Below are positions 3,803-32,959 of a stretch of DNA of 40,000 bases, one piece after another. Location: positions 95,609-135,608 of the forward strand of contig PFDV01000005.1 in assembly GCA_002772745.1 (NCBI GenBank), written 5' to 3'. The stretch comes from Candidatus Peregrinibacteria bacterium CG10_big_fil_rev_8_21_14_0_10_55_24. Lineage in GTDB: Bacteria > Patescibacteriota > Gracilibacteria > Peribacterales > Peribacteraceae. Made by a program: the position numbers and the translations under genes. The notes under the pieces are model-generated. The model did not search any database and was not told the DNA's origin. It saw only the letters and a program-made list of their open reading frames with translations. Within the stretch, counting starts at the first letter, position 1. Every line of letters starts with the position of its first letter.

Positions 3803-4013
3803 TTCACTTGGAGTGTGACGTGGGGTGGCACGAGGCCCTGAGCGTCATCGAAGGGCCGATAGGAGTGGCTACAATCGAGAGCACCACATTAGGGTAGCAC
3901 AGGGGCTTGGTAGGCTCTCCATGCAAAGAGCGTCATTTTCTGGCTGGCTGCCCCTTCCTTCCGCTGGAGAAATCGGTATCATTCTTGAGACCGCCTTTTC
4001 TGCTTGTTTTTCT

Positions 4014-7000: not shown

Positions 7001-7028
7001 TCCGAAGAAGAAAGCGCGTAAGCGCTAG
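4014..7028 (+). CDS. gyrA: DNA gyrase subunit A with acidic N-terminal extension and Lys-rich C-terminal tail
   Basis: Canonical blocks are present: [42 protein letters not shown], and the catalytic-Tyr context AAMRYTE. The C-terminal domain has repeated beta-pinwheel-like segments. I moved the start to ATG 4014 (MANDPHDDD) because the 63 upstream codons of the track ORF are Arg/Gly/Ser-rich filler lying in the divergent rsmI/gyrA intergenic region. Confidence 0.95.
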
Positions 7029-17128: not shown

Positions 17129-17148
17129 TCATGGTTCATACTTTTCCC

Positions 17149-18879
17149 ATGCAGCAGACCAGCCTTCACCAAGGTTCCGGCCGGCAAGCCTGTAGCCAAT
17201 GCCAAGCGGCGTTCGAGAATACCGAGGATGACTTCACGTTCTACGAGTCTCTTGGCGTGCCCCCTCCGCGTCTCTGTCCCGAGTGCCGCTTCGTGCGGCG
17301 TCTCAACGAGCGCAACGCACGAGTGCTCTACAAGCGGAACTGCGATCTCACCGGACGTGAGATCATCTCGCCGTACCACCGGAACCATCCGTTCCCCGTG
17401 TACGCGGCCGACGTCTGGTGGGGAGACGAGTGGGATGAGCTCAGTTACGGACGGGACTTCGATTTCTCCCGGCCGTTCTTCGAACAGTTTGCAGAACTCC
17501 TCTCCGTGGTTCCGCACCAGGCGACGTTCGTCATCACGGGTACATTGCAGAACAGCGACTACACGAACTGCACGGGATACTGCAAAAACTGCTACCTGAT
17601 TGCGGAGGCGGATCACAACGAGGACTGCTACTACGGCAATCGTCTGTTCTTCAATACGAGCATGGTGGACTGTTCCAACTGCTACGAGAGCGAGCTTTGC
17701 TACGAGACGATCAACTGCATCAAGTGCTTCAATGTGCGGTTCTCAGAGTACTGCCAAACGTGCAGCGACAGCGCATTCCTCAAGAACTGCATCGGCTGCA
17801 AGAACTGCATCGGCTGCATCAACCAGCGCCAGAAGCAGTACATGATCTTCAACGAGCAGCTCGCGCAGTCCGAATTTGAAAAGCGTCTTGGTGAGATGAA
17901 GCTCGATACACAGAGTGGCATCGTCCGCATGCGTGAGCAGGTAGATGCGTTCTTCCTCACCCAGCCGCAGCGTGTGCTCCAGAACGAGCACAACCAGAAT
18001 TCCACCGGCAACCATCTCTACGATTCCAAGAATTCCGCGGAGTGCTTCGACTGCAAGGATCTGGAGGACTGCAAGTGGTGTGCCAAGGTCTTCTCGGTGC
18101 GTTCTTCGCGCGATTACACCTCATGGGGGGATACGGCGGAACTCATGTACCAGTGCGCGGCGTGCGGGGATCACTCGTACGGGCTCAAGTTCTGTTCGAC
18201 GTGCACCACGAACAACGCCAATCTGGAGTACTGCGCGCACTCTACGGGAAGTAAGGACTGCTTTGGCTGCGTAGGGCTTCGGCACAAGCAGCACTGCATC
18301 TTCAACAAGCAGTACTCGGAAGAGGAGTACAAGGAACTCAAGGCAAGGATCATCGAGCACATGCGTTCAGCCACCCTTTGCTCCTCAGGAGCTACGGAGG
18401 GGCAGGCAGGCGAATACGGGGAGTACTTCCCCAAGGAACTTTGTCCCTATGCCTACAACGAGACCATTGCCATGGAGTACTTTCCTCTTACAAAGGAGGA
18501 AGCACTTGCCAAGGGGTATCGCTGGCAGGAGCCGATTGATGAGATGCCGGATGTAGAAAAAACTGTCCCGGCTGATCGTCTCCCCGAGACCATTGCCCAG
18601 GTGCCCGACGATATCCTCAACTGGGCGGTAACGTGTCAGGAGACCAAGAGACCCTATCGCATCATGAAACGCGAGCTCGAGTTCTACCGCCAGCAGAATC
18701 TCCCTATCCCACGGCTCCATCCGGACGTGCGCCACGATCGCCGGCAGAGCAGGCGTGCGGGTGCGCATCTTTTCTCTCGAACCTGCGCCAAGTGTGGCAA
18801 GGAGATGCAGACGTCGTTCGCTCCCGATTGGCCAGAGATTGTGTACTGTGAGGAGTGCTACCTGAAAGAAGTGTACTGA
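17149..18879 (+). CDS. Cys-rich multi-zinc-ribbon protein, array paralog P1 (function unknown)
   Basis: Collinear with the other array members. Start chosen at the second ATG (MQQTSLHQGSGRQACSQC) because the upstream ATG of the track ORF (17131) is ATA in the homologous leader at 39921. The N-proximal second ribbon is degenerate (CDLTG...VYAADVWW). The C-terminus is CAKCGKEMQTSFAPDWPEIVYCEECYLKEVY, followed by a double stop TGATGA. Confidence 0.9.
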   Translation: MQQTSLHQGSGRQACSQCQAAFENTEDDFTFYESLGVPPPRLCPECRFVRRLNERNARVLYKRNCDLTGREIISPYHRNHPFPVYAADVWWGDEWDELSYGRDFDFSRPFFEQFAELLSVVPHQATFVITGTLQNSDYTNCTGYCKNCYLIAEADHNEDCYYGNRLFFNTSMVDCSNCYESELCYETINCIKCFNVRFSEYCQTCSDSAFLKNCIGCKNCIGCINQRQKQYMIFNEQLAQSEFEKRLGEMKLDTQSGIVRMREQVDAFFLTQPQRVLQNEHNQNSTGNHLYDSKNSAECFDCKDLEDCKWCAKVFSVRSSRDYTSWGDTAELMYQCAACGDHSYGLKFCSTCTTNNANLEYCAHSTGSKDCFGCVGLRHKQHCIFNKQYSEEEYKELKARIIEHMRSATLCSSGATEGQAGEYGEYFPKELCPYAYNETIAMEYFPLTKEEALAKGYRWQEPIDEMPDVEKTVPADRLPETIAQVPDDILNWAVTCQETKRPYRIMKRELEFYRQQNLPIPRLHPDVRHDRRQSRRAGAHLFSRTCAKCGKEMQTSFAPDWPEIVYCEECYLKEVY

Positions 18880-18947
18880 TGAAAGTATCGAGTATTCAGT
18901 ATCGAGTATTCAGGGATTCCCTTCATACGTAATACTCTATATACTAG
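18880..18947 (+). repeat. B-type heptamer-repeat hairpin (GTATCGA/GTATTCA units), copy B2
   Basis: AGTATCGAGTATTCAGTATCGAGTATTCAGGGA is followed by TCCCTTCATACGTAATACTCTATATACT. The arms are imperfectly complementary (GAGTATT pairs with AATACTC). Confidence 0.75.
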
Positions 18948-18952
18948 CTCCT

Positions 18953-20629
18953 GTGCAACAGACCTGTGCACAGTGCGGCTCGAACTTTGAGATCACGGAT
19001 GAGGATCTCCAATTCTACGACAAGATATCGCCTTCCTTCAATGGCAAGAAAATCACAATTACTCCTCCAACTCACTGCCCGGATTGTCGTCAGCAACGCA
19101 GAATTGCATGGAGAAATGAAAGAAAGCTATACGAACGACCTTGCGATCTTTGCAAGAAATCAATGATTGCAGCATTCAATAATGACAGCCCATATACCGT
19201 TTATTGCCATGATTGCTGGTGGTCTAATAAGTGGGATCCAACTGAGTACGGACAGGAGTATGACTTCAGCCGTACGTTCTTCGAACAATTTCAGGAACTC
19301 ATGCACAAGACTCCTAAGGCAGGGGTTTTTCAGTTAAACAATGAAAATTGCAAATACAATCAGCTTCTGGCTTTCAGTAAAAATACATACTTAAGCCCCG
19401 GCAGTTACTTGATGGAAAATTGCATTTATGTTCGAAAAGGGCAGTACTGTCGTGATTGCATTAACAGCAACGCACTCAATAAATGTGAACTTGTTGCAGA
19501 CAGTTCGAACTGTGATGGATGTAACACTGCACATCACTTAACGAATTGCCGCAGCTGCTCCTTCTCCAGCTATCTTCAGGATTGTTCTGGTTTGCAGAAT
19601 TGCTGCATGTGTTGTGGTCTAAAGAGCAAACAATATTGTTTTAAGAATGAGCAATACTCAAAAGATGAATACGAAGACATCGTGAAAGATTTAGAGAGAA
19701 AGAACACAGATGAGTTATTGAATGAATTTCTTGAATTCTGCATAACAATCCCCAAAAAAGCTCAAATTCAACTTAATAGTGAAAATTCGTCTGGCGACTA
19801 TCTTTATAATTGCCACAACGCAGCAGAATGTTTTGATTGCTTTGAGGTTGAAGATTCGAAATATATATTTGAATGCGAAGGGGTAAAAGATTCAATGGAC
19901 ATGTCTAGCCACGATAAAGATGTCGAACTCTGTTACGAGATGTCATCAGGTGGAGAAAAGAATTATCAAACGAAGTTTTGCCTTTGCTCTATCGCATCAC
20001 CAAGATCTGCATATCTGTATTCTTGCTTTTATCTGAGCGATAGCTTTGGATGTGATGGCTTTCACGAACGTGGCCAGTATTGCATCCTCAATAAACAATA
20101 CTCGAAAGAAGAATACGAAGAGCTAGTACCAAAGATCATCGAACATATGAAAAACACAGGAGAATGGGGCGAATTCTTCCCTATAACTCTCAGTCCATTT
20201 GCATACAACGAAACAATTGCACAGGACAATTTCCCAATGACAAAACAAGAAGTAAAAGCAAAGGGATGGAGATGGCTGGATGAAAAAGATGAGATATCAC
20301 AAGTGGATAAAATCATTCCTGCGGAGAAACTCCCTGATTCCATTGAGGATATTCCAGATGACATTTTGAACTGGGCCATTGAATGCAAATCAACGAAACG
20401 ACCTTACAGAGTCATCAAACAAGAACTTGAGTTCTATCGCCGGATGAAATTGCCTGTTCCAAAATTCCATCCCGATGAACGTCATCGCAGGAGGATGGAA
20501 CTGCGCAATCCCCGTAAGCTCTGGGACAGAAAATGCGACAAGTGTGGAAAAGAGATTCAGACAACGTATAGTCCGGACAGACCAGAGGTTGTCTATTGCG
20601 AAGAGTGTTATCTGAAAGAAGTGTACTGA
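18953..20629 (+). CDS. Cys-rich multi-zinc-ribbon protein, array paralog P2 (AT-rich copy)
   Basis: GTG start (MQQTCAQCGS). Both CxxC-x17-CxxC ribbons are intact (CDLC-17-CHDC and CDKC-17-CEEC). It ends CYLKEVY. GC content is much lower than in P1 or P3. Confidence 0.9.
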   Translation: MQQTCAQCGSNFEITDEDLQFYDKISPSFNGKKITITPPTHCPDCRQQRRIAWRNERKLYERPCDLCKKSMIAAFNNDSPYTVYCHDCWWSNKWDPTEYGQEYDFSRTFFEQFQELMHKTPKAGVFQLNNENCKYNQLLAFSKNTYLSPGSYLMENCIYVRKGQYCRDCINSNALNKCELVADSSNCDGCNTAHHLTNCRSCSFSSYLQDCSGLQNCCMCCGLKSKQYCFKNEQYSKDEYEDIVKDLERKNTDELLNEFLEFCITIPKKAQIQLNSENSSGDYLYNCHNAAECFDCFEVEDSKYIFECEGVKDSMDMSSHDKDVELCYEMSSGGEKNYQTKFCLCSIASPRSAYLYSCFYLSDSFGCDGFHERGQYCILNKQYSKEEYEELVPKIIEHMKNTGEWGEFFPITLSPFAYNETIAQDNFPMTKQEVKAKGWRWLDEKDEISQVDKIIPAEKLPDSIEDIPDDILNWAIECKSTKRPYRVIKQELEFYRRMKLPVPKFHPDERHRRRMELRNPRKLWDRKCDKCGKEIQTTYSPDRPEVVYCEECYLKEVY

Positions 20630-20723
20630 CGTAGTATCGAGTATGAAGTATCTGGTATCGAGTATTTGGTATAATAAGTATTTGGGGAGAGGAGTTACTT
20701 CCATACCAAATACTCTATACTAG
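20630..20723 (+). repeat. B-type hairpin, copy B3
   Basis: GGTATCGAGTATTTGGTAT (20654-20672) pairs with ATACCAAATACTCTATACT (20703-20721). The conserved leader AATACTCTATACTAGCCCCT-GTG follows. Confidence 0.75.
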
Positions 20724-20728
20724 CCCCT

Positions 20729-22420
20729 GTGCAACAGACCTGTGCACAGTGCGGCTCGAGCTTTGAGATCACGGATGATGATCTGAAGTTCTACGAGCAT
20801 GTGTCGCCTGTGTTCGGTGGGAAGAGATACTCAATCCCGTCACCCACTCGGTGCCCCGATTGTCGGCAGCAGCGACGGCTGGCAATTTGCAACGAGTTCA
20901 ATCTCTATCCAGGGAAGTGCGATCTCTGTGGCAAGGAGACCATCGTGCAATTCGAGCCGAGCGATACGCGTACCATCTACTGTCGTGATTGTTGGCATAG
21001 CGACAAATGGAATGCGTGTGATTTCGGAAGAGATATTGATTTTACTCGGCCGTTCTTTGAGCAATTCAAGGAGCTCCGTGACAGCCTCCCAGCGCAGGGG
21101 CTTGATATGCAAGGGAACGTCGTAAATTGCGATTACATTCACTACGCGGGCTCCTCAAAAAACTGCTACCTCATCATGCACGCTGATTTTTGCGAAGATT
21201 GCTACTACGGTTACGGATTCAAGAAGAACACATCCTGTGTTGACGGGTTTTACAATCTCCATTGCGAACTTAGCTACGACTGCGTCGATTGTCACAAGTG
21301 CTACCACCTTGTTGGGTCGCAGGAGTGCCTTAACTGCAATACAGGAGCTTTCCTGCGTGACTGCATTGGGTGTAACAACTGTTTTCTCTGCGTTGGCCTG
21401 CGCGAGAAGGAGTTCTGTTTTGAAAATGAGCAGCTAACGAAGGATGAGTACAAGAAGCGCATTGCCGAGATCGATTTGCGTTCGTATGCGCAGTACCAAG
21501 TGTGCAAGAAGAAACGGAGAGAGCTCGAACTTACGCATACGTTCAAGGAATTCCAGGGACATAACCTTGAGAACTGTTTAGGTAATCACCTCTACAACTG
21601 CAAGAATCTTCGGGAAAGCTTTGATTGCGAGGATGTGGAGGATGGAAAATGTTGCTACCAGGTCGTGCTTGCCGCCAAGGATGTCCACGACATCTATCAG
21701 TACGGTTCCAATCTGCAGGCTTCGTACGAGTGTGCCATTTCGGGGGAAGACAGTTTTCATCTCCGTTTCAGCTTCGGTTGTCATATGGGGTGCAGTGAAC
21801 TCATGTACTGCTTCTACATGGAGGCAAGTAGGGACTGCTTCGGGTGCGCGTACATGCAGAAGAATCACCACTGCGTCTTCAACAAGCAGTACACGAAGGA
21901 GGAGTACGATGCGCTTGTCCTCCGTTTGATTGAGCACATGAAACAAACCGGTGAGTGGGGAGAGTTCTTCCCCATGTCGCTCTCGCAATTCGGGTACAAC
22001 AAGACGTCCGCCCAGATGTATTACCCCCTAGAGAAGGATGGAGCGATGAAAATCAGTGCGGCATGGTCGGATTATGAACCGCCACCTCCCCAGGTCGCCA
22101 AAGTCATTCCTGCAGACAAATTGCCAGATAACTCCAAGGACATTCCCGATGATGTTCTCCATTGGGCAATCCAGTGTGAGGTGACAGGGAAACCGTTCAA
22201 AATCACACCGCAGGAACTCCGGTTCTACCGTCAGATGGCACTTCCTCTTCCGCGCCGTTCTTGGTACCAACGGCACCTCGATCGGTTCCACCAGCGCAAT
22301 CCCCGTACGTTGTGGGACAGAAAATGCGCCAAATGCTCTGCGTCCATCCAAACGACCTACGCTCCCGATCGTCCCGAAATTGTCTACTGTGAGGATTGTT
22401 ACCAAAAGGAAGTATACTGA
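20729..22420 (+). CDS. Cys-rich multi-zinc-ribbon protein, array paralog P3
   Basis: GTG start. The first 57 nt differ from P2 at only 3 positions. Ribbons are intact. C-terminus is CEDCYQKEVY. Confidence 0.9.
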   Translation: MQQTCAQCGSSFEITDDDLKFYEHVSPVFGGKRYSIPSPTRCPDCRQQRRLAICNEFNLYPGKCDLCGKETIVQFEPSDTRTIYCRDCWHSDKWNACDFGRDIDFTRPFFEQFKELRDSLPAQGLDMQGNVVNCDYIHYAGSSKNCYLIMHADFCEDCYYGYGFKKNTSCVDGFYNLHCELSYDCVDCHKCYHLVGSQECLNCNTGAFLRDCIGCNNCFLCVGLREKEFCFENEQLTKDEYKKRIAEIDLRSYAQYQVCKKKRRELELTHTFKEFQGHNLENCLGNHLYNCKNLRESFDCEDVEDGKCCYQVVLAAKDVHDIYQYGSNLQASYECAISGEDSFHLRFSFGCHMGCSELMYCFYMEASRDCFGCAYMQKNHHCVFNKQYTKEEYDALVLRLIEHMKQTGEWGEFFPMSLSQFGYNKTSAQMYYPLEKDGAMKISAAWSDYEPPPPQVAKVIPADKLPDNSKDIPDDVLHWAIQCEVTGKPFKITPQELRFYRQMALPLPRRSWYQRHLDRFHQRNPRTLWDRKCAKCSASIQTTYAPDRPEIVYCEDCYQKEVY

Positions 22421-22426
22421 CCCCCA

Positions 22427-24106
22427 ATGCAGAAGACCTGTACCCACTGCGGCAACATATTCGAGATAACTAATGAGGATCTCGCTTTTTACGACAAAGT
22501 GTCACCAGTGTTTCAGGGGAAAAAATATCAGGTTCCTCCACCCACCCATTGTCCAGAGTGCAGGCAGCAGCGCCGGGTTGCTCAGGCGAACCAAATTACA
22601 CTGCACGAACGAACATGCGATTTAACCGGGGCAACCATTATTTCGAATCATCGATCTGACTCACCGTTCAAAGTGTATCAACAGTCAGTATGGTTTTCGG
22701 ATCAGTGGGATCCTATGGAATATGGCAGAGATTTCGATTTCAATCGATCGTTCTTCGATCAACTTAAAGAGTTATCGTTCGTGGTTCCTCGGTATGCTGT
22801 ACAACGAGGATATGACTTCGATGAGAATGCAGACTACACAAACTATGCAGGGAAAAATAAGAATTGTTACCTTATTTTCGATTCCGATCACTGTCGAGAT
22901 TGCTATTACTCTTACAGCATAAATAGCTGCGAGAGTTGTATGGAGAGTTATCGTTTGCGCCAGTGCGAACTGTGTTACGAGTGTATTGACTGCGTTGATT
23001 GCTATAACTGTGCATTTACACAAGACAGTGAAAACTGCTCGGAGAGCACCTTCCTCAAGAACTGTATTGGATGCAAACACTGTCTCATGTGCAGCAATCT
23101 GCGCAACAAAGAATACTACGTAGAGAATAAACCTGTGACGAAAGAGCAATTCGCACAATTTCGTTCACTTCTCTCCTCGTACAGCCGCCTGCAGAATGCT
23201 CGTGAGCGTTTCGATAAGCTGAAGATTGAATATCCACAGAAATTCATGCACGGGACGCAGAATGAGAACGTGATCGGAGATTACCTCACGAACTGCAAGA
23301 ATGTGGAGCAGTGCTTCGATTGCTCAGATCTATGGGATTGCAAGTACGCGTACCAGGCATTCGATCCCCTGAAAGATGTGATGGACATTCAGGAGTGTGG
23401 TGAGGCTGAGCGGCTCTATGAGGATGCATTCGTAGGGTACAACGCTCATAACGTTCTCTTCACCACACATACGTTGGGACAAATCTCAGATATCTATTAC
23501 TCAAGTCATTCTCCCTATAATAAGAATCTTTTCGGCTGTATTGGCCTGCGTCATAAAGAGTTCTGTGTCTTAAATAAGCAGTACAGCAAAGACGACTACG
23601 AGATACTGGTTGCTAGGATCATTGAACACATGCAGAAAACGAACGAATGGGGGGAATTTTTCCCCATTGATTTTTCGTTATTCCCTTATAACGAAACAAT
23701 GGCACAGGATTACTTTCCTCTCACACAAGAGGAAGCGCAGAAGCAGGGGTTGTGGTGGGCAGAGAAGGAAGAGAGCATCTATAAGGGGCAGATTGTAAAA
23801 GAAGGGCTGCCGGATGATGTACGAGACTTTCCAGAAACGTTATGTGAAAAAATCCTTCAGTGCAAAAAAACAGGAAGGTCCTACAAAATCATTCCACAGG
23901 AACTTATCCTGTATCGCCAACTCAATCTTCCGCTCCCCAGACTCTGTTTTCAAGAACGCCACAGGAACAGAATGCTGCTGCGCAATGCGCGCGTGTTCTA
24001 CGACCGAACGTGTGACAAATGCGGTGTGAAGTTTAAGACCACCTATGCACCAGATAGACCGGAGAAGATATACTGTGAATCCTGTTATCAGACATCATTC
24101 GCATAA
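22427..24106 (+). CDS. Cys-rich multi-zinc-ribbon protein, array paralog P4 (AT-rich copy)
   Basis: ATG lies 6 nt after the P3 stop. Second ribbon is degenerate (CDLTG...VYQQSVWF). The C-terminus is divergent (CESCYQTSFA). Its stop overlaps the P5 start (TAATG). Confidence 0.9.
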   Translation: MQKTCTHCGNIFEITNEDLAFYDKVSPVFQGKKYQVPPPTHCPECRQQRRVAQANQITLHERTCDLTGATIISNHRSDSPFKVYQQSVWFSDQWDPMEYGRDFDFNRSFFDQLKELSFVVPRYAVQRGYDFDENADYTNYAGKNKNCYLIFDSDHCRDCYYSYSINSCESCMESYRLRQCELCYECIDCVDCYNCAFTQDSENCSESTFLKNCIGCKHCLMCSNLRNKEYYVENKPVTKEQFAQFRSLLSSYSRLQNARERFDKLKIEYPQKFMHGTQNENVIGDYLTNCKNVEQCFDCSDLWDCKYAYQAFDPLKDVMDIQECGEAERLYEDAFVGYNAHNVLFTTHTLGQISDIYYSSHSPYNKNLFGCIGLRHKEFCVLNKQYSKDDYEILVARIIEHMQKTNEWGEFFPIDFSLFPYNETMAQDYFPLTQEEAQKQGLWWAEKEESIYKGQIVKEGLPDDVRDFPETLCEKILQCKKTGRSYKIIPQELILYRQLNLPLPRLCFQERHRNRMLLRNARVFYDRTCDKCGVKFKTTYAPDRPEKIYCESCYQTSFA

Positions 24107-25770
24107 TGCAGAAAACCTGCGCGCAGTGTTCGGCAGCATTCGAGGTCACGGCTGACGACCAAGAATTCTACCGTAAGCTCCAGGTTCCCGAACCAACGTG
24201 GTGTCCGCAGTGCAGAGAGATGCGACGGATGGCATGGTACACCGAGCGGTATCTCTATCCCGGTCAGTGTGCGCTGTGCAAGAAGGATGTGATCTCGCAG
24301 TTTGCTCCGGGGAATCCGCGAACAAAGAACCAGTACTGCTTAGACTGCTGGTGGAGCGAGAAGTGGGATCCGCTTTCCTACGGACGCGACTACGATCCGA
24401 ACAGATCATTTCTGGAGCAGTTCCATGAACTTGAGCTTGCAGTGCCCTATGCATGTACCACGAATGACACCGTGCTGCAGAACTGCGATTACACGCACCA
24501 GACGGGCCACAGCAAGAATTGCTACCTTGTTTTCCACACGTCGTTGTGTGAGGACTGCTACTACGGTTACGGTGTGAAGAAGAGCAAGAACTGCATTGAT
24601 GTGCACTACTGCCACGAGTCGGAGCTGTGTTACGAATGCGTCGATGTCGTGAGGTGCTACGGTCTCTCTTGGTGTCAGGATTGCCACAACTGTTCCGACA
24701 GTAGATTCATCCGCGATTGCATTGGTTGCATTGAATGCTTTCTCTGTGTTGGTCTGCGCAACAAGAAGCACTGTTTCCTTAATGAGCAGTTATCACCCAA
24801 GGAGTACAAGGAGCGCATGGCTGAAGTGTCGACAGGTTCATGGTCGATGACGCAGTTGATGCTCAAGAAGTACAAGGAATTGCAACTCAAACACCACTGG
24901 AAGTGTCTGCAGACGGAAATGACTCAAAACTCAACGGGTAACTACCTCTACCGTGCGCGCGATGCACAACAGTGCTTTGATTGCAGTGACATTGAGTACT
25001 CGCAGTACTGCAGCCAGTTGCAACTCGGCACGCGGTTCTGCCGCGACATCTTCCAGTTCGGTATCGAAATTGATCTCTGCTATGACTCGACCTCAATCGG
25101 ATACAACAGCTACGACCTCGCATTCTGTCTGTCGTGCATGGAAAGCGCCGCAAGGCTCCGGTACTGCATGTACTGTTTTGGAGGAACGTCCGACTGCTTC
25201 GGGTGCGTTCAACTGCAGCGTGGGAAGTTTTGCATATTGAACAAGCAGTACAAGGAAAGCGAGTACCATGCTCTCCGCGAGAAGATCATCGAGAAGATGA
25301 CGGCAGATGGCGAGTATGGCGAGTTCTTCCCGATACGCTACTGTGCGAGCGGGTACAACGAGTCGACGGCGCAGTGGTGGTATCCGAAAACGAAAGAGGA
25401 GGCTCTGCGCAACGGCTGGCCCTGGGAGGACAACCTGCCGCGTACGGAGGGAAAGGAGACATTGGATATCGTCCCGGATCGTATCGAAGACGTTCCTGAC
25501 GATGTCATTGGAAAAATTCTGCGTTGCGAGAAGTGTTCAAGGAATTACAAAATCATTGCGCAAGAACTCGACTTCTATCGGAAGTGTTCCATTCCGCTGC
25601 CACGTCGCTGCTTCGACTGCCGTCGCATGGATCGCTTTGATCTGCGTAATCCTCGCAAGCTCTTTTCGCGTCCCTGTGCTAAATGCGGCAAGGAAATGCA
25701 GACGACCTACCAGCCTTCGCGGCCGGAGATTGTGTACTGTGAGGAGTGCTACTTGAAAGAAGTGTACTGA
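24106..25770 (+). CDS. Cys-rich multi-zinc-ribbon protein, array paralog P5
   Basis: MQKTCAQCSAAFEVTADDQEFY. Ribbons are intact, with x19 spacing in the N-proximal one. It ends CEECYLKEVY. Confidence 0.9.
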   Translation: MQKTCAQCSAAFEVTADDQEFYRKLQVPEPTWCPQCREMRRMAWYTERYLYPGQCALCKKDVISQFAPGNPRTKNQYCLDCWWSEKWDPLSYGRDYDPNRSFLEQFHELELAVPYACTTNDTVLQNCDYTHQTGHSKNCYLVFHTSLCEDCYYGYGVKKSKNCIDVHYCHESELCYECVDVVRCYGLSWCQDCHNCSDSRFIRDCIGCIECFLCVGLRNKKHCFLNEQLSPKEYKERMAEVSTGSWSMTQLMLKKYKELQLKHHWKCLQTEMTQNSTGNYLYRARDAQQCFDCSDIEYSQYCSQLQLGTRFCRDIFQFGIEIDLCYDSTSIGYNSYDLAFCLSCMESAARLRYCMYCFGGTSDCFGCVQLQRGKFCILNKQYKESEYHALREKIIEKMTADGEYGEFFPIRYCASGYNESTAQWWYPKTKEEALRNGWPWEDNLPRTEGKETLDIVPDRIEDVPDDVIGKILRCEKCSRNYKIIAQELDFYRKCSIPLPRRCFDCRRMDRFDLRNPRKLFSRPCAKCGKEMQTTYQPSRPEIVYCEECYLKEVY

Positions 25771-25841: not shown

Positions 25842-27524
25842 GTGCAACAGATCTGTGCCAACTCCTGGTGTCAAGAGCCCTTTCTCGTTGAGAAGGAGGA
25901 TGAGGAGTTCTTTGGAAAACTGCGCAGGGCTGCGCCCGAGCTTAGAGACATTCCTCCTCCCGTGCGATGCCCCGACTGCCGCCAGCAGCGCCGGCTCGCT
26001 CGGCGCAATGAGCGCGCGTTCTACCGGCGTACCTGCTCAATGTGCAACCGCGACATTCTTGCGATGTACCCCGCCGATGCGCCGTTCCCCGTGTACTGCT
26101 CCGCGTGCTGGTGGGGGGACAAGTGGGATCCACTCTCCCTTGGGAAGACGTTCGATCCGAAGCGCCCATTCCTCGAGCAGTTTGCTGAGCTCCAGCGCCA
26201 GGTTCCGCGGTTGGCGCTCTTCGGGAAGAACAATGAGAATTGCGAGTACATCAACCATTCGGAGAATGCAAAAAACTGCTACCTCTGCGTGGATGTCGTC
26301 GCACAGGACACGTACTACTCCAAGTGGATGATCAATTGCAGGGATTGCTGCGACTGCTACCAATTGGAGAAGAGCGATTTGTGTTACGAGTCCCAGTACT
26401 CCGTGGGCATGAACAACGATATCTACGCATTCCTCAGTGACCAATCCTGCAATCTCCTCTTCTGCTACGACTGCGAGGGGTGCAACGATTGTCTGCTCTG
26501 CACGCACCTACGGCACAAGAGGTTCTGCATCATGAATGAGCAATTCACCGAAGAGGAGTACCGCAAGCGGCTTACGGAGATTGATCGGGGGTCCTACAAG
26601 ACATTCTCGGTGCTCCTGGAACGCTACCACGATCTCTGGAGGACAACGTTCCATCGGCAGCACCAGGCTTTGGTGAATGCGACACAGTGCAGCGGGGATC
26701 TCTTCTACAACTGCCAGAACGTCCGGCACTCGTTCGGCGTTATCGAGTCGCGTGATTGCGCGTACTGCTACGACGCGGGACACATGCAGGATTGCCAAGA
26801 TGCGTATGAACCTGCGTTCAATTGCGAACTTCAGTACGACTGTCATGCATGCAATCGTGGCAAGCGCATTGCAGCGTGTTCCGTGTGCTACGACGTCGTC
26901 GGGTGTGCGTATTGCGACATGTGCCACAATGCAAGCCATCTCTTCGGTTGTATCAGTCTCAAGCACAAGGAGTACTGCATCCTCAACAAGCAGTACACCA
27001 AAGAGGAATACCTTGCGCTCCTTCCTGCGGTCATTGGGCGCATGCAGAGTGACGGAACGTGGGGGGAATTTTTCCCTGCATCACTCTTGCCCTTTGCCTA
27101 CAACGAGACCGTAGCCCAGGAGTACTACCCGCTCGATCGAGCGTCTGCAGAAGAGAGGGGATGGCGGTGGAAAGAGGAGGAGCACGCGCCGCCGAATTCC
27201 AAGAAGGTCATTTCCGCTGCTCAGCTTCCCGACCACATCAAGGATACTCCCGATGATGTCCTCAACTGGGCTATCCGGTGCGAGGCAACCGGAAAGCTCT
27301 TTCGCATCGTGAAGCAGGAACTCCTTTACTATCGCAAGATGGGCTTACCCCTGCCCAGGCTCCATCCCGATGAGCGCTACCGGCAGCGCATGGCGTTCAC
27401 GAATTCGCGCAAGCTCTTTGAGCGCACCTGCGCCAAATGCTCTAAGACCATGGAAACGACGTACGCCCCCGACCGACCGGAAATTGTGTACTGTGAGGAT
27501 TGCTACCTGAAAGAAGTGTACTGA
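25842..27524 (+). CDS. Cys-rich multi-zinc-ribbon protein, array paralog P6
   Basis: GTG start. The N-terminal knuckle is CANSWC (Cx4C variant). Second ribbon is intact. It ends CEDCYLKEVY. Confidence 0.9.
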   Translation: MQQICANSWCQEPFLVEKEDEEFFGKLRRAAPELRDIPPPVRCPDCRQQRRLARRNERAFYRRTCSMCNRDILAMYPADAPFPVYCSACWWGDKWDPLSLGKTFDPKRPFLEQFAELQRQVPRLALFGKNNENCEYINHSENAKNCYLCVDVVAQDTYYSKWMINCRDCCDCYQLEKSDLCYESQYSVGMNNDIYAFLSDQSCNLLFCYDCEGCNDCLLCTHLRHKRFCIMNEQFTEEEYRKRLTEIDRGSYKTFSVLLERYHDLWRTTFHRQHQALVNATQCSGDLFYNCQNVRHSFGVIESRDCAYCYDAGHMQDCQDAYEPAFNCELQYDCHACNRGKRIAACSVCYDVVGCAYCDMCHNASHLFGCISLKHKEYCILNKQYTKEEYLALLPAVIGRMQSDGTWGEFFPASLLPFAYNETVAQEYYPLDRASAEERGWRWKEEEHAPPNSKKVISAAQLPDHIKDTPDDVLNWAIRCEATGKLFRIVKQELLYYRKMGLPLPRLHPDERYRQRMAFTNSRKLFERTCAKCSKTMETTYAPDRPEIVYCEDCYLKEVY

Positions 27525-27597: not shown

Positions 27598-27615
27598 ATG
27601 GTTCATACTTTTCCC

Positions 27616-29286
27616 ATGCAGCAAATCTGCGCAAATGCGTGGTGTAAGCAGAGCTTCGAGAGCACGGACGAAGATCTCGCGTTCTACCGGAAGATCTCTC
27701 CGACGTTCGCAGGGGAGACGTTTGCGATTCCACCTCCCACTCAGTGTTTCTCCTGCCGCCAAGCCCGTCGCTTGGCGTACCGCAACGAGCGGCATCTGTA
27801 CCACCGATCCTGCGATCTAACGAGGAAGGACATTCTCTCCATCTACTCTCCTGATAAGCCCACGAAGGTCTACGAGCACAGTGCATGGTGGAGCGACAAG
27901 TGGGATCCGCTCTCCTATGGCCGGGACTTCGACTTCTCCCGTCCGTTCTTTGAGCAGTTTTTTGAGCTCCAAACAGCGGTACCGCGTATCAACGTGAACA
28001 ACATGGACTGCGAGAACAGCGACTTCTGCAACTTCTCCGTTCAAAATCGCAACTGCTACCTGCTCTTCGGAGCTCTTGAGAACCAGGATTCCTTCTACTC
28101 CAACCGCATTCTCTACTGTAAGGACTGTTGCGATTGCTCCGGCATCGAGAAGTGTGAACTCTGCTATGAGTGTAACGACAGTCAGCGCTGCTACCAGTGC
28201 AGGGATTTGCAGAACTGTAGTCACTGCACCGATTGCCAGCTGGGGTACAACCTCCACAGCTGCAAGAATTGCTTCGGCTGCGTCAATCTGCAGAATGCGT
28301 CGTTCTGCATCGAGAACGTTGCGTACTCCGAGCAGGAGTACAAGGAACTTCTGGAGAAGAAGCTTTCTTCGTATGAGCAGGAGCGCAAGAACTTCCAGCA
28401 GAGGAAACTCTCGGCTCCGCGCAAGTACATGGATGCCATCAACACCGAGCACTGTACGGGGAATGCGATCATCAACAGCAAGAACGCGCTGGATTGCTAC
28501 GAGGTGATGGACCTGGAGGATTGCCGGTACCTGGCGAATGCCACGTTCATGAGAGATGCGTACGATACGACTCATGACGATCACTCCGAGCTTGTCTACG
28601 AAGCCATAGGAAGCGAAACAAACTTCATGCACCTCTTCTGTGACATCTGCTGGTACGATCGTGAGCTTCTGTACTGCAGCATGTGCTTCAACTCCCAGAA
28701 CCTCTTCGGCTGCTGTGGTATGCGCAAGAGCAAGTACTGTATCCTCAACAAGCAGTATTCCAAGGAAGAGTACGAGAAGCTCGTTGCGAAGATCATCAAG
28801 TACATGCAAGAGACCGGAGAATGGGGAGAGTTCTTCCCCGTGTGCTTCTCGCCGTTTGCGTACAACGAAACCCTTGCCCAGGAGCATTCCCCATTATCCA
28901 AGGATGCAGTGGAGGAACGGGGGTGGAATTGGAAAGACGAAGAGGATGACATGCCGGATGTCGAGAAAGTCATCGAAGGGTCGCGTCTGCCAGCGGACAT
29001 TGCGGCAATTCCCGACGATATCCTCAACTGGGCCATCCGCTGCGAGGTGACGCAACGGCCATTCCGTATTATGAAGCAGGAACTCGCGTTCTACAGAAAA
29101 TTCCACATCCCCGTGCCCCATCTTCACCCTGATGAGCGGCACCGCAGACGCATGGTGCTCAGGAACCCCCGCAAGCTCTGGGATAGGCAGTGCGGCAAGT
29201 GCTCTAAAGAGATACGGACGAGTTATGCGCCGGAGAGGCCGGAAATCGTCTACTGTGAGGACTGCTACTTGAAGGAGGTGTACTAA
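27616..29286 (+). CDS. Cys-rich multi-zinc-ribbon protein, array paralog P7
   Basis: MQQICANAWCKQSF. Second ribbon is degenerate (CDLTR...VYEHSAWW). It ends CEDCYLKEVY with TAA. Its stop overlaps the stop of the convergent TrmB-like gene by 4 nt. Confidence 0.9.
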   Translation: MQQICANAWCKQSFESTDEDLAFYRKISPTFAGETFAIPPPTQCFSCRQARRLAYRNERHLYHRSCDLTRKDILSIYSPDKPTKVYEHSAWWSDKWDPLSYGRDFDFSRPFFEQFFELQTAVPRINVNNMDCENSDFCNFSVQNRNCYLLFGALENQDSFYSNRILYCKDCCDCSGIEKCELCYECNDSQRCYQCRDLQNCSHCTDCQLGYNLHSCKNCFGCVNLQNASFCIENVAYSEQEYKELLEKKLSSYEQERKNFQQRKLSAPRKYMDAINTEHCTGNAIINSKNALDCYEVMDLEDCRYLANATFMRDAYDTTHDDHSELVYEAIGSETNFMHLFCDICWYDRELLYCSMCFNSQNLFGCCGMRKSKYCILNKQYSKEEYEKLVAKIIKYMQETGEWGEFFPVCFSPFAYNETLAQEHSPLSKDAVEERGWNWKDEEDDMPDVEKVIEGSRLPADIAAIPDDILNWAIRCEVTQRPFRIMKQELAFYRKFHIPVPHLHPDERHRRRMVLRNPRKLWDRQCGKCSKEIRTSYAPERPEIVYCEDCYLKEVY

Positions 29287-30062
29287 GCAGTCACTTCTCT
29301 GCTGATACCCCAGAGCGCGGTGTGCCATGCGCGAAACGCATCCGCAAGCAGCGGATTTTCGATGCGGATGATCGTCGGCTCTTCCGAGAAGGTAAACATG
29401 GAGATTTCGTTCTCGAAGATAATGACATCGGCGTCGAACGCAACGCTCTTGGGCAGCAGGCGTATCCGGTACTCCTTGTGCGGCGGAACGTTCGCGATGT
29501 ACCGGCGCGTGGCGGCATTGTCTACGAGCAGCTCTCTCCCGCGCAGTATTGCCCCTTTGCCAAAGAGCTGGATGGCGATGTTCCCGCCGAACGTCTCCCA
29601 GTCCACCTTAGGATTGAAGAACGCTACGAATGGCCTGGCAAGGACGTCCCTGTACACTTGTTTGATGCCCTCCAAACCGTGCGCGACCGTCACCCGCGGT
29701 TCGCCGACCTTGCGGGGCGTCATGGAGGTGAAGTACGGCATCATGCCCTTGGTGAGTGCTTCGAGCTCATGGATTTCCTGCTCGCGGTTCTGCAGGTAAT
29801 TGAGGAGTCGCTCCGGTGCTTCAGTCACGAAGTGGATGATCTTGCCCTTCTCCACTTCGGAGACCAAACCCTTCTCCGTCAAACTGCGCAGGATCAAGTA
29901 CGTGTGACTGCGCGATTGGTGCGCGGCCCTTGCAATCTGTGTTGCTTTTCCCGTCTTCATGGCAAGGAGTGCCAAGTAAACGTCGACTTCACGATCATCC
30001 AAGCCAATGCGCTGAAGGAGGGGACGCACGGCGCGGTTACTCAACTGGTGGTGCTTTCTCAT
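29283..30062 (-). CDS. TrmB-family winged-helix transcriptional regulator, copy T1
   Basis: N-terminus LLQRIGLDDREVDVYLALLAMKTGKATQIARAAHQSRSHTYLILRSLTEKGLV is the TrmB-type HTH. A coiled segment and a C-terminal domain follow. It is a paralog of T2 and T3. Confidence 0.8.
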   Translation of the reverse strand: MRKHHQLSNRAVRPLLQRIGLDDREVDVYLALLAMKTGKATQIARAAHQSRSHTYLILRSLTEKGLVSEVEKGKIIHFVTEAPERLLNYLQNREQEIHELEALTKGMMPYFTSMTPRKVGEPRVTVAHGLEGIKQVYRDVLARPFVAFFNPKVDWETFGGNIAIQLFGKGAILRGRELLVDNAATRRYIANVPPHKEYRIRLLPKSVAFDADVIIFENEISMFTFSEEPTIIRIENPLLADAFRAWHTALWGISREVTA

Positions 30063-30102: not shown

Positions 30103-30197
30103 ATTGAATTTATCTCTAATCTTAGAGCTTATAGAAGGCATATTTCCTTGTTTCAAATAATTTGACAATTTATGGCGTATCCTGTCAATATTGTCCC

Positions 30198-31868
30198 ATG
30201 CAACGCAACTGCATCGTTTGTGGCTCTGCCTTCGAACACACGCAGGATGAGCAGGATTTTCTCGGGAGAATTTCGCCGGTTTTCCGGGGAAAGAAATACG
30301 AGATACCTCCGCCGACCTGTTGCGCAGACTGCCGGCTTCAGCGTCGCTTGGCGTACCGCAATGAGAAGACTCTTTTCCGTCGAACGTGCGATCGCACTGG
30401 TAAGGACATCATCTCGGTGCATGCTCCCGGAACGGGGTTTTCCATATATGCGAAGGAAGAGTGGTGGAGCGATCAGTGGGATCCACTGGAGTATGGACGT
30501 GACTACGATTTCAATCGCCCGTTTTTTGAACAGTTTGCTTCGTTGCAGAAGGCTGTGCCGCGAATGGCACTGCAGCAGGAACACAACGAGAACAGCGACT
30601 ACACCAATAACGTTTCGTATTTGAAGAATTGCTACCTCCTCTTCTCAGCCGACTACAGCAGGGATTGTTGTTACGGTATCTGGATTGAACGCAGTCGTGA
30701 CTGTCTCGACAATTTCATCATTGATGAATGTGAGATGGCGTACGAATGCATTTTTTCGAACAAAATCTACAACTCGTGTTTCATTTACTCCTCTTCGCAA
30801 TGCCGTGACAGCGCGTTTCTGCGTGATTGCCGCGGCTGCTCCGATTGCTTCATGTGTTGGGGGCTAAGGGGAAAACAGTACTGCATTGCAAACGTGCAGT
30901 ATTCCAAAGATGAGTACGTTGCGAAGCGTGCAGGATTTCCTCTCTCGTCGTACAAGAATCTCCAGGCGTGCAAGCAGCGCTTCGATGCTCTCCTCAAAGA
31001 TGCTGTCCAACCAGCTATGCGTAAGCATGGTAGGGTAATTGATTCCACTGGCGATTTCTTAGCCGATACACAGAACTGCAGTAACTGCTACGAACTCCGC
31101 TTTGCGAAGGATTGCAGGAATTCCGTTGGATTCCAGGTCAAGGACGCATACGACTGTACGTACGTGAGCGGGGAGTTTGCGTACGAGAGCTGTGAGTGTT
31201 TCCCAACACCGTCACATTCCGCATTCAACTTGAATAGCTACACGGGGAACAGTCTCTTCTACTGCGACCTGTGCATGAACAACTGCCAGGATCTCTTTGG
31301 ATGCGTTGGCATGAAGAAAGCGCAGTACTGCATCCTCAACAAGCAATATACCAAAGAGGAGTACGAAGAACTCGTCCCCAAGGTCATCGACCACATGCGT
31401 TCAACGGGGGAGTGGGGAGAGTTCTTCCCGATTGCGCTTTCTACGTTCGGTTACAACATCTCGGAGGCCAACCAGTATTTCTCTCTGAGGAAAGAGCAGG
31501 TGACTCGTAATGGTTGGAGGTGGCAAGAAGAGGTGGAGAGCAGGAAGCCGGATGTCACAACCAAAGAAATTGCCGATGATATTCATGACGTAGCAGATTC
31601 CCTCTGCGACCACGTTTTTGCGTGTGACGTCACCGGAAAGCCGTATAAAATTATTCCGCAGGAGCTAAAGTTCTACCGTGCAATGGGATTGCCGATTCCC
31701 CGCCGATGTCCCGATCAGCGGCATTCGGATCGGTTAGCACTCAGGAACCCCCGCAAGCTCTGGGATCGCGCATGTGCCAAATGCAGTAAGCCGATCCAGA
31801 CGACGTACCAGCCTTCGCGGCCAGAGGTTGTGTACTGCGAAGAGTGTTACTTGAAAGAAGTGTACTGA
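30198..31868 (+). CDS. Cys-rich multi-zinc-ribbon protein, array paralog P8
   Basis: Start set at ATG 30198 (MQRNCIVCGSAFEHTQDEQDF) by alignment with the other copies; the track start at 30162 is the TTG of a TTGACA hexamer. Second ribbon is degenerate. It ends CEECYLKEVY. Confidence 0.9.
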   Translation: MQRNCIVCGSAFEHTQDEQDFLGRISPVFRGKKYEIPPPTCCADCRLQRRLAYRNEKTLFRRTCDRTGKDIISVHAPGTGFSIYAKEEWWSDQWDPLEYGRDYDFNRPFFEQFASLQKAVPRMALQQEHNENSDYTNNVSYLKNCYLLFSADYSRDCCYGIWIERSRDCLDNFIIDECEMAYECIFSNKIYNSCFIYSSSQCRDSAFLRDCRGCSDCFMCWGLRGKQYCIANVQYSKDEYVAKRAGFPLSSYKNLQACKQRFDALLKDAVQPAMRKHGRVIDSTGDFLADTQNCSNCYELRFAKDCRNSVGFQVKDAYDCTYVSGEFAYESCECFPTPSHSAFNLNSYTGNSLFYCDLCMNNCQDLFGCVGMKKAQYCILNKQYTKEEYEELVPKVIDHMRSTGEWGEFFPIALSTFGYNISEANQYFSLRKEQVTRNGWRWQEEVESRKPDVTTKEIADDIHDVADSLCDHVFACDVTGKPYKIIPQELKFYRAMGLPIPRRCPDQRHSDRLALRNPRKLWDRACAKCSKPIQTTYQPSRPEVVYCEECYLKEVY

Positions 31869-32167: not shown

Positions 32168-32959
32168 GTGCAACAGCGTCTTCGTGATCTCCTGCGGCGT
32201 GTCGGCCTCCGAGAGGAGGAAATTGCCTTGTATGTACACCTCCTTCGCCTGAAGCACGCAACCGCCACGCAGCTGATTGCAGCAAGCGGCCTCAACACGA
32301 TGACGGTGTATCGCACAATCAAGCGCCTCCGAGACCGGGGTCTTCTCCAAGCGCAGTCCATCAACAACAAGCAGTCGCTCTTCGCACCGCTTCCCCTAAG
32401 TGCAATCATTCAGAAGCTCGGTACAGAACAGATGGTGCTGCGCAAACTCCAGCTTGCTCTCAAAGATCTCGATCCTCTCCTTCCGTACCTTGATGTTGCT
32501 CAGCAGTTGGAGGAGGAAGCCCAGCCCATTGAACTGCGCGAGGGGCTCGATGCCTTCCGCGAGGAGTACATGAAGCTCCCCGATCTCTGCACCGACGAAT
32601 ACCTCTGCATGGGTTCCATGCAGAATTACTGGAAGGTCGCGGCAATGTCCGATGAGTCGCCGGAAGAGCTCGCGTTCCGTCACAAGCGCTATGGGCACGG
32701 TATTTCCTGCCGCGTGTTCAACACGCACTCTGTGGAATCCGAGAGCTTTGCGAAGCGCGATTCCAAGGAGATGCGCACCACCCGCCTTGTCGACGTCATT
32801 CCCATCCGCAATGATTACGTGGGGTACACGGCAACGCAGATTGCACACTTCATCTGCGACGAGGCGCACCCCCGAGTGATCGTTATTCGACATCCTGAGC
32901 TTTGCACTCTCTACCGTCAGCAGTTCAATGACCTGTGGCGTTCCGGGGTGGGAGCATGA
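32168..32959 (+). CDS. TrmB-family winged-helix transcriptional regulator, copy T2
   Basis: LLRRVGLREEEIALYVHLLRLKHATATQLIAASGLNTMTVYRTIKRLRDRGLL is a TrmB-type HTH. The architecture matches T1 and T3. Confidence 0.75.
   Translation: MQQRLRDLLRRVGLREEEIALYVHLLRLKHATATQLIAASGLNTMTVYRTIKRLRDRGLLQAQSINNKQSLFAPLPLSAIIQKLGTEQMVLRKLQLALKDLDPLLPYLDVAQQLEEEAQPIELREGLDAFREEYMKLPDLCTDEYLCMGSMQNYWKVAAMSDESPEELAFRHKRYGHGISCRVFNTHSVESESFAKRDSKEMRTTRLVDVIPIRNDYVGYTATQIAHFICDEAHPRVIVIRHPELCTLYRQQFNDLWRSGVGA

Follow-up and report, generated by a model that had tools for sequence, protein, structure and literature searches.

Beetle antifreeze proteins (AFPs) are right-handed beta-helices with coils of 12 residues. 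In TmAFP (PDB 1EZG), the solved analogue of the case described here, these coils follow the consensus TCTxSxNCxxAx, in which positions 2, 5, 8, and 11 point inward, while the cysteines C2 and C8 are disulfide-bonded (PMC8038014). AFPs of fish, plants, fungi, and bacteria are stated to lack the 12-residue repeat sequence (PMC8038014), and up to now a beta-helix with 12-residue coils and a Cys core has been considered peculiar to the beetle proteins. We here examine a Cys-rich block in P4, a 559-aa protein that is encoded at 22427..24106 (+) of a 40,000-nucleotide stretch of DNA from Candidatus Peregrinibacteria bacterium CG10_big_fil_rev_8_21_14_0_10_55_24 (contig PFDV01000005.1, positions 95,609 to 135,608; referred to as the window), and that is one of ten tandem paralogs according to the open reading frame (ORF) list and the paralog alignment. 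The block, i.e., codons C147 to C222 (22865..23092, +), holds 16 Cys in a single residue class modulo 3, and the analyses support its assignment as a new version, from bacteria and phages, of the Cys-cored beta-helix with 12-residue coils, in an uncharacterised family of very large size. Specifically, we consider it probable that a cytoplasmic protein of ~560 aa contains two homologous beta-solenoid modules, of which the block is the first, and that the Cys register marks the inward core of this first module.

The block resembles the beetle proteins (TmAFP, DcAFP, and DhbAFP) in its 12-residue period, as derived from covariation and predicted bridges, and TmAFP in particular in that its Cys are limited to one residue class modulo 3. 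Moreover, its predicted inward positions fall on every third residue with the same 2/5/8/11 numbering, and would be filled by Cys, Ser, and Ala around a very thin core. In contrast, homology to TmAFP was not detectable and is rejected, since hhalign of the block alignment versus the 1EZG sequence yielded a probability of 14%. Likewise, 1EZG was retrieved neither by the block profile from the PDB sequences nor by Foldseek with the block model. Unlike TmAFP, the block has no TCT/TxT ice-binding face, its other two phases carrying Y/F/E and D/N without enrichment of Thr. Furthermore, TmAFP is secreted, whereas P4 has a zinc ribbon at its N-terminus and no signal peptide, and the solenoid module occurs twice inside a 560-aa bacterial multidomain protein. 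The block works in the manner of a TmAFP coil without belonging to the TmAFP family.

The cysteines of the block keep a strict register

An earlier note on this DNA had numbered the block from N146 (the first residue of NCYLIF), and had placed its Cys at positions 2, 11, 14, 23, 26, 35, 38, 41, 44, 47, 50, 59, 68, 71, 74, and 77, all of them at 3n+2. This list is exact, with 16/16 of the P4 block Cys at 3n+2, and the chance for 16 Cys among 77 positions to fall in one class modulo 3 is 9e-10. Fourier analysis of the Cys indicator yielded a period-3 power of 6.4–21 in the ten paralogs, versus an expected value of ~1. The Cys register is real and highly non-random.

The paralogs P3 (563 aa; 20729..22420, +) and P10 (567 aa; 35727..37430, +) had been claimed to keep the same register, and indeed do so with 15/15 and 17/17 Cys, respectively, in the 90 residues starting at NCY (i.e., 14 inside the 77-residue block plus one at position 86 for P3, and 16 inside the block for P10). 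The same is true for P5 (554 aa; 24106..25770, +) with 16/16 Cys and for P9 (562 aa; 33090..34778, +) with 11/11 Cys in register. The 3-residue insertion proposed for P1 (582 aa; 17131..18879, +) is not needed, as this paralog aligns gap-free with all 13 of its block Cys in register. In P6 (560 aa; 25842..27524, +), one residue is deleted near the start of the block, so that the native numbering is shifted; once aligned, its Cys fall in register. One or two off-register Cys each are present in P2 (558 aa; 18953..20629, +; 12/14 block Cys in register), P7 (562 aa; 27598..29286, +; 16/17), and P8 (568 aa; 30162..31868, +; 11/13).

Because Tandem Repeats Finder revealed no DNA-level tandem repeat, the 36-nt spacing of TGY codons is a consequence of the protein pattern, and recent nucleotide expansion is ruled out as the source of this pattern. 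Since the paralogs are moreover only ~40% identical, the Cys pattern is kept by selection on the protein.

The recurrence of CxxC pairs every 12 residues (CxxC-x8), as noted earlier for P4, is present there as listed, but is weak in the paralogs, and the CxxC pairs are not conserved across the family. In fact, the period-12 power of Cys occupancy was 0.2–3.2 in the paralogs and 0–2.5 on the Cys-frequency profile of the family. Block position 11 (Cys in P4) is Asn in 103/124 close homologues, and Ser prevails at positions 35 and 50. Conversely, these homologues mostly have Cys at positions 29 and 56, where P4 has Ser. The CxxC-x8 motif is a peculiarity of P4, whereas the 12-residue structural period is real.

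Register positions behave as a buried core across the family

In a family-wide alignment of 276 sequences (including 147 representatives of 50%-identity clusters, and with a median identity to P4 of 40%), 3770 of the 3834 block Cys (98.3%) were in register, and 224/276 sequences were in register for 100% of their block Cys. The conservation of the register, on which the earlier note had made its observation depend, is thereby borne out. Similarly, among 124 close homologues each column between residues 147 and 231 with an appreciable Cys frequency was in register. The family as a whole counts 5611 clusters (at 50% identity) with E up to 1e-3, and 2417 with E up to 1e-30.

Across 157 diverse sequences, the 26 register positions were occupied by Cys (frequency of 0.49), Ser (0.18), Leu (0.08), and Val (0.05), followed by Ile, Gly, Thr, Ala, and Asn. 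The +1 phase was rich in Tyr/Phe/Glu and the +2 phase in Asp/Asn/Gly. With an entropy of 1.95 bits, versus 2.81 and 2.39 bits out of register, the register is the least variable phase. None of the block Cys is invariant, only 2/26 register positions being at least 90% Cys, and Cys numbers vary from 7 to 20 per block and from 0 to 4 per 12-residue turn, leaving no conserved ligand set. Register positions behave as a buried core that accepts small or slim side chains, with Cys markedly preferred.

The nearest sequence relatives of the block outside the family are small phage proteins of the (C-x-[DENKG])n type. The phrog_15341 hidden Markov model matched P4 with E 5.3e-6 (residues 145–232) and P5 with E 2.4e-6 (residues 126–225), while a tblastn match to the block had E 3e-5. 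NVP1238B_69 of Vibrio phage 1.238.B (locus L085, 2914–3288) is annotated as "insect antifreeze protein" via IPR016133. Furthermore, the Campylobacter phage protein vB_CjeM_WX1_0155 (locus L086, 1381–1941) matched the block profile with an hhalign probability of 94.6% (E 6.6e-8, 42 columns). Its match to 1EZG (E 3e-5) stems almost entirely from compositional bias (25.7/26.4 bits), and the similarity between phage proteins and block may be partly compositional as well. Both NVP1238B_69 and vB_CjeM_WX1_0155 consist nearly throughout of C-x-[D/E/N/K/G] triplets (~25–45 triplets), and thus share with the block the Cys at every third residue and the D/E/N in the +2 phase. Unlike the block, however, these two short proteins (124 and 186 aa) repeat almost perfectly and have Cys at practically all register positions and, unlike P4, they have no zinc-ribbon modules.

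Coevolution and structure prediction point to 12-residue coils

The coevolution analyses made use of no structure predictor and drew on only about 160 effective sequences. Among the top 60 pairs in residues 121–240, as ranked over all residue types by mutual information with average product correction (MI-APC), a separation of 12 residues occurred 15 times and the next commonest separation three times. For module 2 of the protein (see below), separations 12 and 13 dominated, with 9 and 8 pairs, respectively. With regard to Cys occupancy, the mean phi coefficient was –0.162 at separation 6 (z –6.9) and +0.118 at separation 12 (z +4.7), with z-scores computed against 5000 permutations of column order, and was not significant at separations 3, 9, 15, and 18. 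The strongest single Cys pairs (207–213, 204–210, 189–195, and 201–207) were all negative and all at separation 6. Typical i/i+6 pairs were Cys+Ser, Cys+Leu, and Cys+Val, with pairs containing no Cys being depleted. P4 mirrors these swaps, having Ser at block positions 29 and 56 (Cys in the family) and Cys at positions 35 and 50 (Ser in the family). Phylogenetic non-independence may inflate single phi values; it cannot produce the separation-specific sign pattern.

A coil of 12 residues, in which i lies opposite i+6 and under i+12, accounts for both the period of 3 and the signs of the covariation. Since the MI-APC peak at separation 12 comprises all residue types and not Cys alone, it also speaks against the block being something other than a solenoid. 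Unlike TmAFP, which has one conserved Cys2–Cys8 disulfide per coil, the i and i+6 Cys of the block are anticorrelated rather than paired.

AlphaFold2, run on full-length P4 and on the block alone, yielded a beta-solenoid in both cases. The full-length model (124-sequence alignment) reached a predicted local distance difference test (pLDDT) of 85.7 and a predicted template-modelling (TM) score of 0.89, and contained isolated bridges 12 residues apart in the block (150/153, 162/165, 174/177, etc.). The model of the block alone (residues 106–250, 39 sequences) had a pLDDT of 85–91 over residues 146–205 and showed a near-continuous strand, which can be read as a sign of stacked coils. Based on the DSSP bridges of the AlphaFold2 model, MI-APC, and the phi of Cys occupancy, solenoid module 1 is predicted to span ~residues 121–235 (22787..23131, +), with the register positions (3n in P4 numbering) as its core. 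A motif at the C-terminal end of the module (SNLRNKEYYVENK...), together with the start of the next helix (23093..23176, +), contains the near-invariant residues L225, K228, and N234, and presumably serves as a cap.

Foldseek revealed no significant structural neighbour in PDB or BFVD, and all weak matches were solenoids or beta-helices. The best non-significant matches of the full-length model were LpxA, GlmU, and gamma-carbonic anhydrase (E at least 0.037, TM score at most 0.22, root mean square deviation (rmsd) 11–19 Å), and those of the block (E >3) were a tailspike-like beta-helix, a fungal antifreeze beta-helix, Qnr, CAP/TBCC, and leucine-rich repeat proteins. The only block neighbour with a TM score >0.5 was BFVD entry A0A5B8IEK9 of Mimiviridae sp. 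ChoanoV1 ("TNFR-Cys domain-containing protein"; TM scores 0.52/0.54, rmsd 4.7 Å, 111 columns, E 3.8), which may be another Cys-rich solenoid, in a giant virus.

Two other periodic folds were considered. Left-handed beta-helix proteins, to which LpxA, GlmU, and gamma-carbonic anhydrase belong, have triangular coils of 18 residues. They are beta-helical solenoids like the predicted block, but the phi of block Cys at separation 18 was not significant (–0.034) and separation 12 was the mode in MI-APC, so that this fold is rejected on coil length (12, not 18). Moreover, no Pfam hexapeptide ([LIV]-G-x4) match was obtained in the Pfam scans of P4 and the block. A period of 3 of the collagen or polyproline II type is set aside, as the register consists of Cys, Ser, and aliphatic residues rather than Gly, and AlphaFold2 predicts strand.

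In the solenoid that we favour, the chain would wind in tight 12-residue coils with four sides of three residues each and, because of these three-residue sides, every third side chain would face a narrow core in which only small or slim side chains fit. Residues i and i+6 would face each other across this core and compensate, usually as Cys plus Ser or an aliphatic residue, and residues i and i+12 would stack into ladders. The Cys register would then be a packing signature and not a conserved set of metal ligands, and the block Cys would presumably be present as reduced thiols. The module as such would form a thin rigid rod, mounted between conserved zinc-ribbon modules. The outward positions of this rod would be the most variable part of the protein, with the solenoids presenting variable outer faces. 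The three-dimensional fold is that proposed by AlphaFold2 only.

Both solenoid and zinc-ribbon modules are duplicated

The domain order of P4 is a zinc-ribbon module, solenoid 1, helices, solenoid 2, a conserved region, and a second zinc-ribbon module. Solenoid module 2 (~residues 270–400; 23234..23626, +), as delineated by hhalign to module 1, AlphaFold2, and couplings, is Cys-poor in P4. Nevertheless, module 1 (~121–250) and module 2 (~270–400) aligned with an hhalign probability of 99.6% (E 1e-24, 126 columns). This homology spans the closing motif (...C-x-x-L-R-x-K-E-[YF]-[CY]-[VI]-x-N-K...) and the following helix, and module 2 is closed by the same motif as module 1 (GLRHKEFCVLNKQY). The P4 residues of module 2 that align to the register are V, C, C, L, C, A, A, L, V, I, C, A, L, D, V, and A. 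Since module 2 is homologous yet Cys-poor, Cys are not needed to specify the fold. In addition, module 2 was predicted better than module 1 (AlphaFold2 pLDDT of 83–98), which counts both against a metal ladder and against the solenoid being a repeat-induced artefact.

Couplings between modules 1 and 2 (residues 130–178 versus 300–351) were among the strongest in MI-APC, i.e., 164–310, 152–323, 130–326, 164–351, and 178–300. These suggest that the two solenoids are packed side by side, and some of them may be artefacts of near-invariant columns.

The N-terminal 90 and C-terminal 85 residues of P4 are homologous zinc-ribbon modules as well (hhalign probability 99.3%, E 4e-20). Because solenoids and zinc-ribbon modules are each duplicated, the architecture can be written as A-B-B'-A'. 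The N-terminal module (C5, C8, C42, C45, and C64; 22427..22696, +) was delineated by hhalign to the C-terminal one and by Cys conservation. The C-terminal zinc-ribbon or treble-clef module (C479; C529, C532, C550, and C553; 23849..24103, +) was delineated by conservation and by matches to the models PF23477 and TIGR04272, which are weak in P4. Specifically, PF23477 (zf_Tbcl_2) scored 19.8 bits in P4, 30.6 bits in P1, and 17.5 bits in P10, versus a Pfam cut-off of 27, and TIGR04272 (CxxC-x17-CxxC) scored 16–23 bits versus a cut-off of 36. The treble-clef Cys 529, 532, 550, and 553 are 97–99% conserved. Optional zinc-site Cys of these proteins are gained and lost as units, with phi values of 1.00 (67/88), 0.97 (67/85), 0.94 (482/510), and 0.87 (8/45). 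A second zinc site of the N-terminal ribbon (C67, C85, and C88; residues 64–88, window 22616–22690) occurs in 36–38% of the family and has been lost by P4.

The zinc-ribbon modules and residues 381–445 are the most conserved parts of the protein, while the solenoids and the inter-module helices are the least conserved. Residues 381–445 (window 23567–23761) form the most conserved stretch outside the zinc ribbons, with the motifs NKQY, EWGEFFP, and YNET.AQ and the near-invariant residues N383, Y386, Y391, G409, Y421, N422, and W444. No family model matched this stretch, which may be a functional site.

Metal, non-solenoid, and disulfide alternatives

The earlier note had proposed either a stacked zinc-knuckle ladder or a tight solenoid. 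The solenoid is favoured by AlphaFold2, by coevolution, and by the TmAFP-like pattern of inward and outward positions, whereas the zinc-knuckle ladder is not supported as a conserved feature, there being no conserved Cys quartets. The block does share the CxxC spacing of zinc knuckles, ribbons, and treble clefs (cf. PF23477, TIGR04272, and LIM), true modules of which are located at both ends of P4. Unlike in such modules, however, the block Cys are neither conserved nor co-varying as quartets, candidate quartets being complete in only 14–84 of the 157 sequences. The largest positive phi between block Cys was 0.45, versus 0.87–1.0 at the true zinc sites of the same proteins, and the mean phi was 0.027 at separation 3 and –0.015 at separation 15. 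The signed Cys covariation also argues against one conserved i/i+6 disulfide per coil.

Moreover, no zinc-finger model matched the block. Scans of P4, its paralogs, and the isolated block with Pfam, NCBIfam, and PADLOC revealed nothing for the block and only weak zinc-ribbon matches at the C-terminus. PDB sequence searches with the whole protein and with block profiles yielded only LIM-like matches of the C-terminal module and non-significant CXXC/TNFR matches. The ferredoxin-type 4Fe-4S signature (CxxCxxCxxxCP) is absent, the block spacing being CxxCxxCxxC without Pro, and no Fe-S family was found in the Pfam and NCBIfam scans.

A number of points weigh against a solenoid with a core of merely packed Cys. 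The pLDDT of the block was only 61–72 in the full-length AlphaFold2 model, and AlphaFold2 has been documented to give confident but unrealistic beta-solenoids on repeat sequences (PMC11795689), for which reason the case for a 12-residue coil was rested mainly on coevolution. The support comes from prediction and sequence, with no solved homologue of the block in the PDB. In addition, there is a strong preference for Cys over Ser and Ala, which are similar in size, and pairs with neither residue Cys are depleted at i/i+6, while the last turn (C213/216/219/222) is 76–92% Cys. This preference is not fully explained by packing, and leaves room for metal or redox chemistry.

The likeliest alternative is a metal-thiolate ladder, in which the inward Cys of successive coils would bind a row of metal ions as Zn(Cys)4 sites (formed by CxxC of adjacent coils or by all-Cys turns) or as Fe-S or Cu(I) clusters, and which would make the block a metal-storage, metal-sensing, or redox module. 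Besides the very high Cys density and the favouring of Cys over Ser/Ala in the core, most i/i+6 pairs keep one Cys or two, and all-Cys turns are frequent, with all four Cys present at 213/216/219/222 in 84/157 sequences and at 183/186/189/192 in 36/157. Furthermore, the exchange between positions 207 and 213 (Ser+Cys versus Cys+Leu) could be read as ligand relocation, position 207 being Cys in 26/37 sequences with Leu at 213. The related phage proteins are made up of (C-x-D/E/N)n only, which gives four Cys for each putative coil, and P4, which has true zinc ribbons besides the block, is predicted to be located in the cytoplasm. Set against this are the variable Cys complement described above, the mean phi of about zero at separations 3 and 15 and below zero at separation 6 (where true zinc ligands reach 0.87–1.0), the Cys-poor but more confidently predicted module 2, and the lack of a match between the block and any zinc-finger or Fe-S family of Pfam, NCBIfam, or the PDB. 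Because of the all-Cys turns, the 207/213 exchange, and the preference for Cys over Ser and Ala, a small but real share of our belief is left for a functional metal-thiolate core, which we otherwise regard as unlikely. A structural metal may be held at one or two all-Cys turns.

In a bolder form of this alternative, the lumen of the solenoid would be a functional thiol channel, in which stacked inward Cys coordinate a row of metal ions, or Fe-S or Cu-thiolate units, along the helix axis. This idea draws on the occurrence of four Cys in each turn of the phage (CxD)n relatives, and, in the P4 block, in the central and the last turn, and we deem it a long shot. If true, the solenoid would be a metal wire encased in protein, or a redox or metal sensor, for which no counterpart among beta-solenoids has been described, and the TrmB-interleaved paralog array (see below) would be a tunable set of sensors in Peregrinibacteria-type bacteria.

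It is also improbable that the block is not a solenoid at all, but, for example, an array of small independent Cys knuckles or a metallothionein-like, disordered, and metal-dependent region on which AlphaFold2 produced a repeat-induced artefact. The documented over-prediction of solenoids on repeats, the moderate pLDDT of the block in the full-length model, and the lack of a significant structural neighbour in PDB or BFVD would all fit such an artefact. The block is not a perfect repeat, however, nor is there a repeat at the DNA level, and the predictor-free coevolution, with its signed pattern at separations 6 and 12, fits a 12-residue coil. The homologous module 2, moreover, was predicted with confidence.

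Finally, a disulfide-stapled beta-helix of the TmAFP type, with a cross-core disulfide between Cys i and i+6 in each coil and an oxidising location, shares coil length and in/out pattern with TmAFP, could draw on the i/i+6 Cys pairs of P4 (180–186, 183–189, 186–192, 189–195, 213–219, and 216–222) and on the phage relatives that are annotated as antifreeze protein or match 1EZG, but is highly improbable in view of the anticorrelation of such Cys, the overlap of the P4 pairs (which cannot all be disulfides), the absence of a signal peptide or transmembrane segment, the zinc ribbons at both ends, the poor hhalign probability versus TmAFP, and the compositional nature of the 1EZG match.

The paralog array and its genomic context

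The ten tandem copies P1–P10 (554–582 aa) are located between 17.1 and 37.4 kb of the window, share 36–43% identity with P4, and have a Cys content of 5.7–8.8%. No hydrophobic (transmembrane) segment or signal peptide was found in any of the ten paralogs (maximum 19-residue Kyte-Doolittle value of at most 1.37), and P4 is therefore predicted to be cytoplasmic. The nearest database entry to P4 is a hypothetical protein of a Candidatus Peregrinibacteria metagenome-assembled genome. This entry, the NCBI protein COU80_02655 (388 aa), is 100% identical across 69% of P4 and begins at Met172 inside the Cys block, thus missing the part from the P4 start to Met172 (window 22427–22942). Because homologues align with the ORF over its entire length of 559 aa, the database start of COU80_02655 is probably wrong.

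Three TrmB-family regulators (~250–260 aa), with a Pfam PF01978 match limited to the N-terminal helix-turn-helix, are interleaved with the last paralogs, i.e., at 29283..30062 (–; E 1e-12), 32168..32959 (+; E 2e-10), and 34883..35644 (–; E 1e-14). Family genes of ~550–580 aa are interleaved with TrmB genes in two other genomes as well (loci L001 and L003), and a third genome that was compared has a single family copy and no TrmB gene among its called neighbours. VirD4/TraG/TrwB-like coupling-protein ATPases flank the array, one (892 aa; 8832–11510, +) ~5.6 kb upstream and the other (791 aa; 37458–39833, +) directly downstream, the latter also matching the PADLOC model "mad8" (E 5e-13). The GC content of ~0.55–0.57 falls to ~0.47 over P2–P4 (window 18000–24000), and then rises again. 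Elsewhere in the window, a GyrA-like ORF (3825–7028, +) has a long C-terminal Lys/Ala/Pro-rich repeat tail (KKPAKK..., VKKPVKK...) that resembles the basic tail of histone H1.

The family is present in Peribacteria/Peregrinibacteria, Gracilibacteria, SR1, Abawacabacteria, and some other Patescibacteria, with at least 592 loci among species-representative genomes. A full-length member with 43% identity is located on contig DUGF01000091.1, which is labelled Candidatus Micrarchaeota archaeon UBA10214, and its presence on an archaeon-binned contig could reflect mis-binning or horizontal transfer. Literature searches yielded no description of Cys-every-third-residue repeats, solenoid Cys ladders, or this family in Gracilibacteria/Peregrinibacteria. 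The Cys-rich proteins reported for Ca. Peribacter (PMC4736985) are a different set, most of them being large and most having a predicted signal peptide, and are annotated as pappalysin-like or otherwise unrelated.

Implications for the family and its hosts

The geometric solution known from beetle antifreeze proteins is thus met again, apparently by convergence, in a cytoplasmic bacterial family of >5600 clusters at 50% identity, the core of which has no Pfam model, and in small phage proteins. From this comparison a usable rule emerges, in that the sign of the covariation in Cys occupancy allows Cys that pack in a core to be told apart from Cys that ligate metal within the same protein. The family moreover offers constructs with which to ask if a reduced Cys ladder folds without disulfides or metals.

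With regard to biological role, the tandem paralogs would be cytoplasmic proteins for binding or recognition that have diversified into a set, and their expression may be controlled by the recurrent neighbouring TrmB regulators. Because arrays of about ten paralogs are maintained in small genomes, the family likely matters to the biology of Peregrinibacteria-type (Candidate Phyla Radiation) bacteria.

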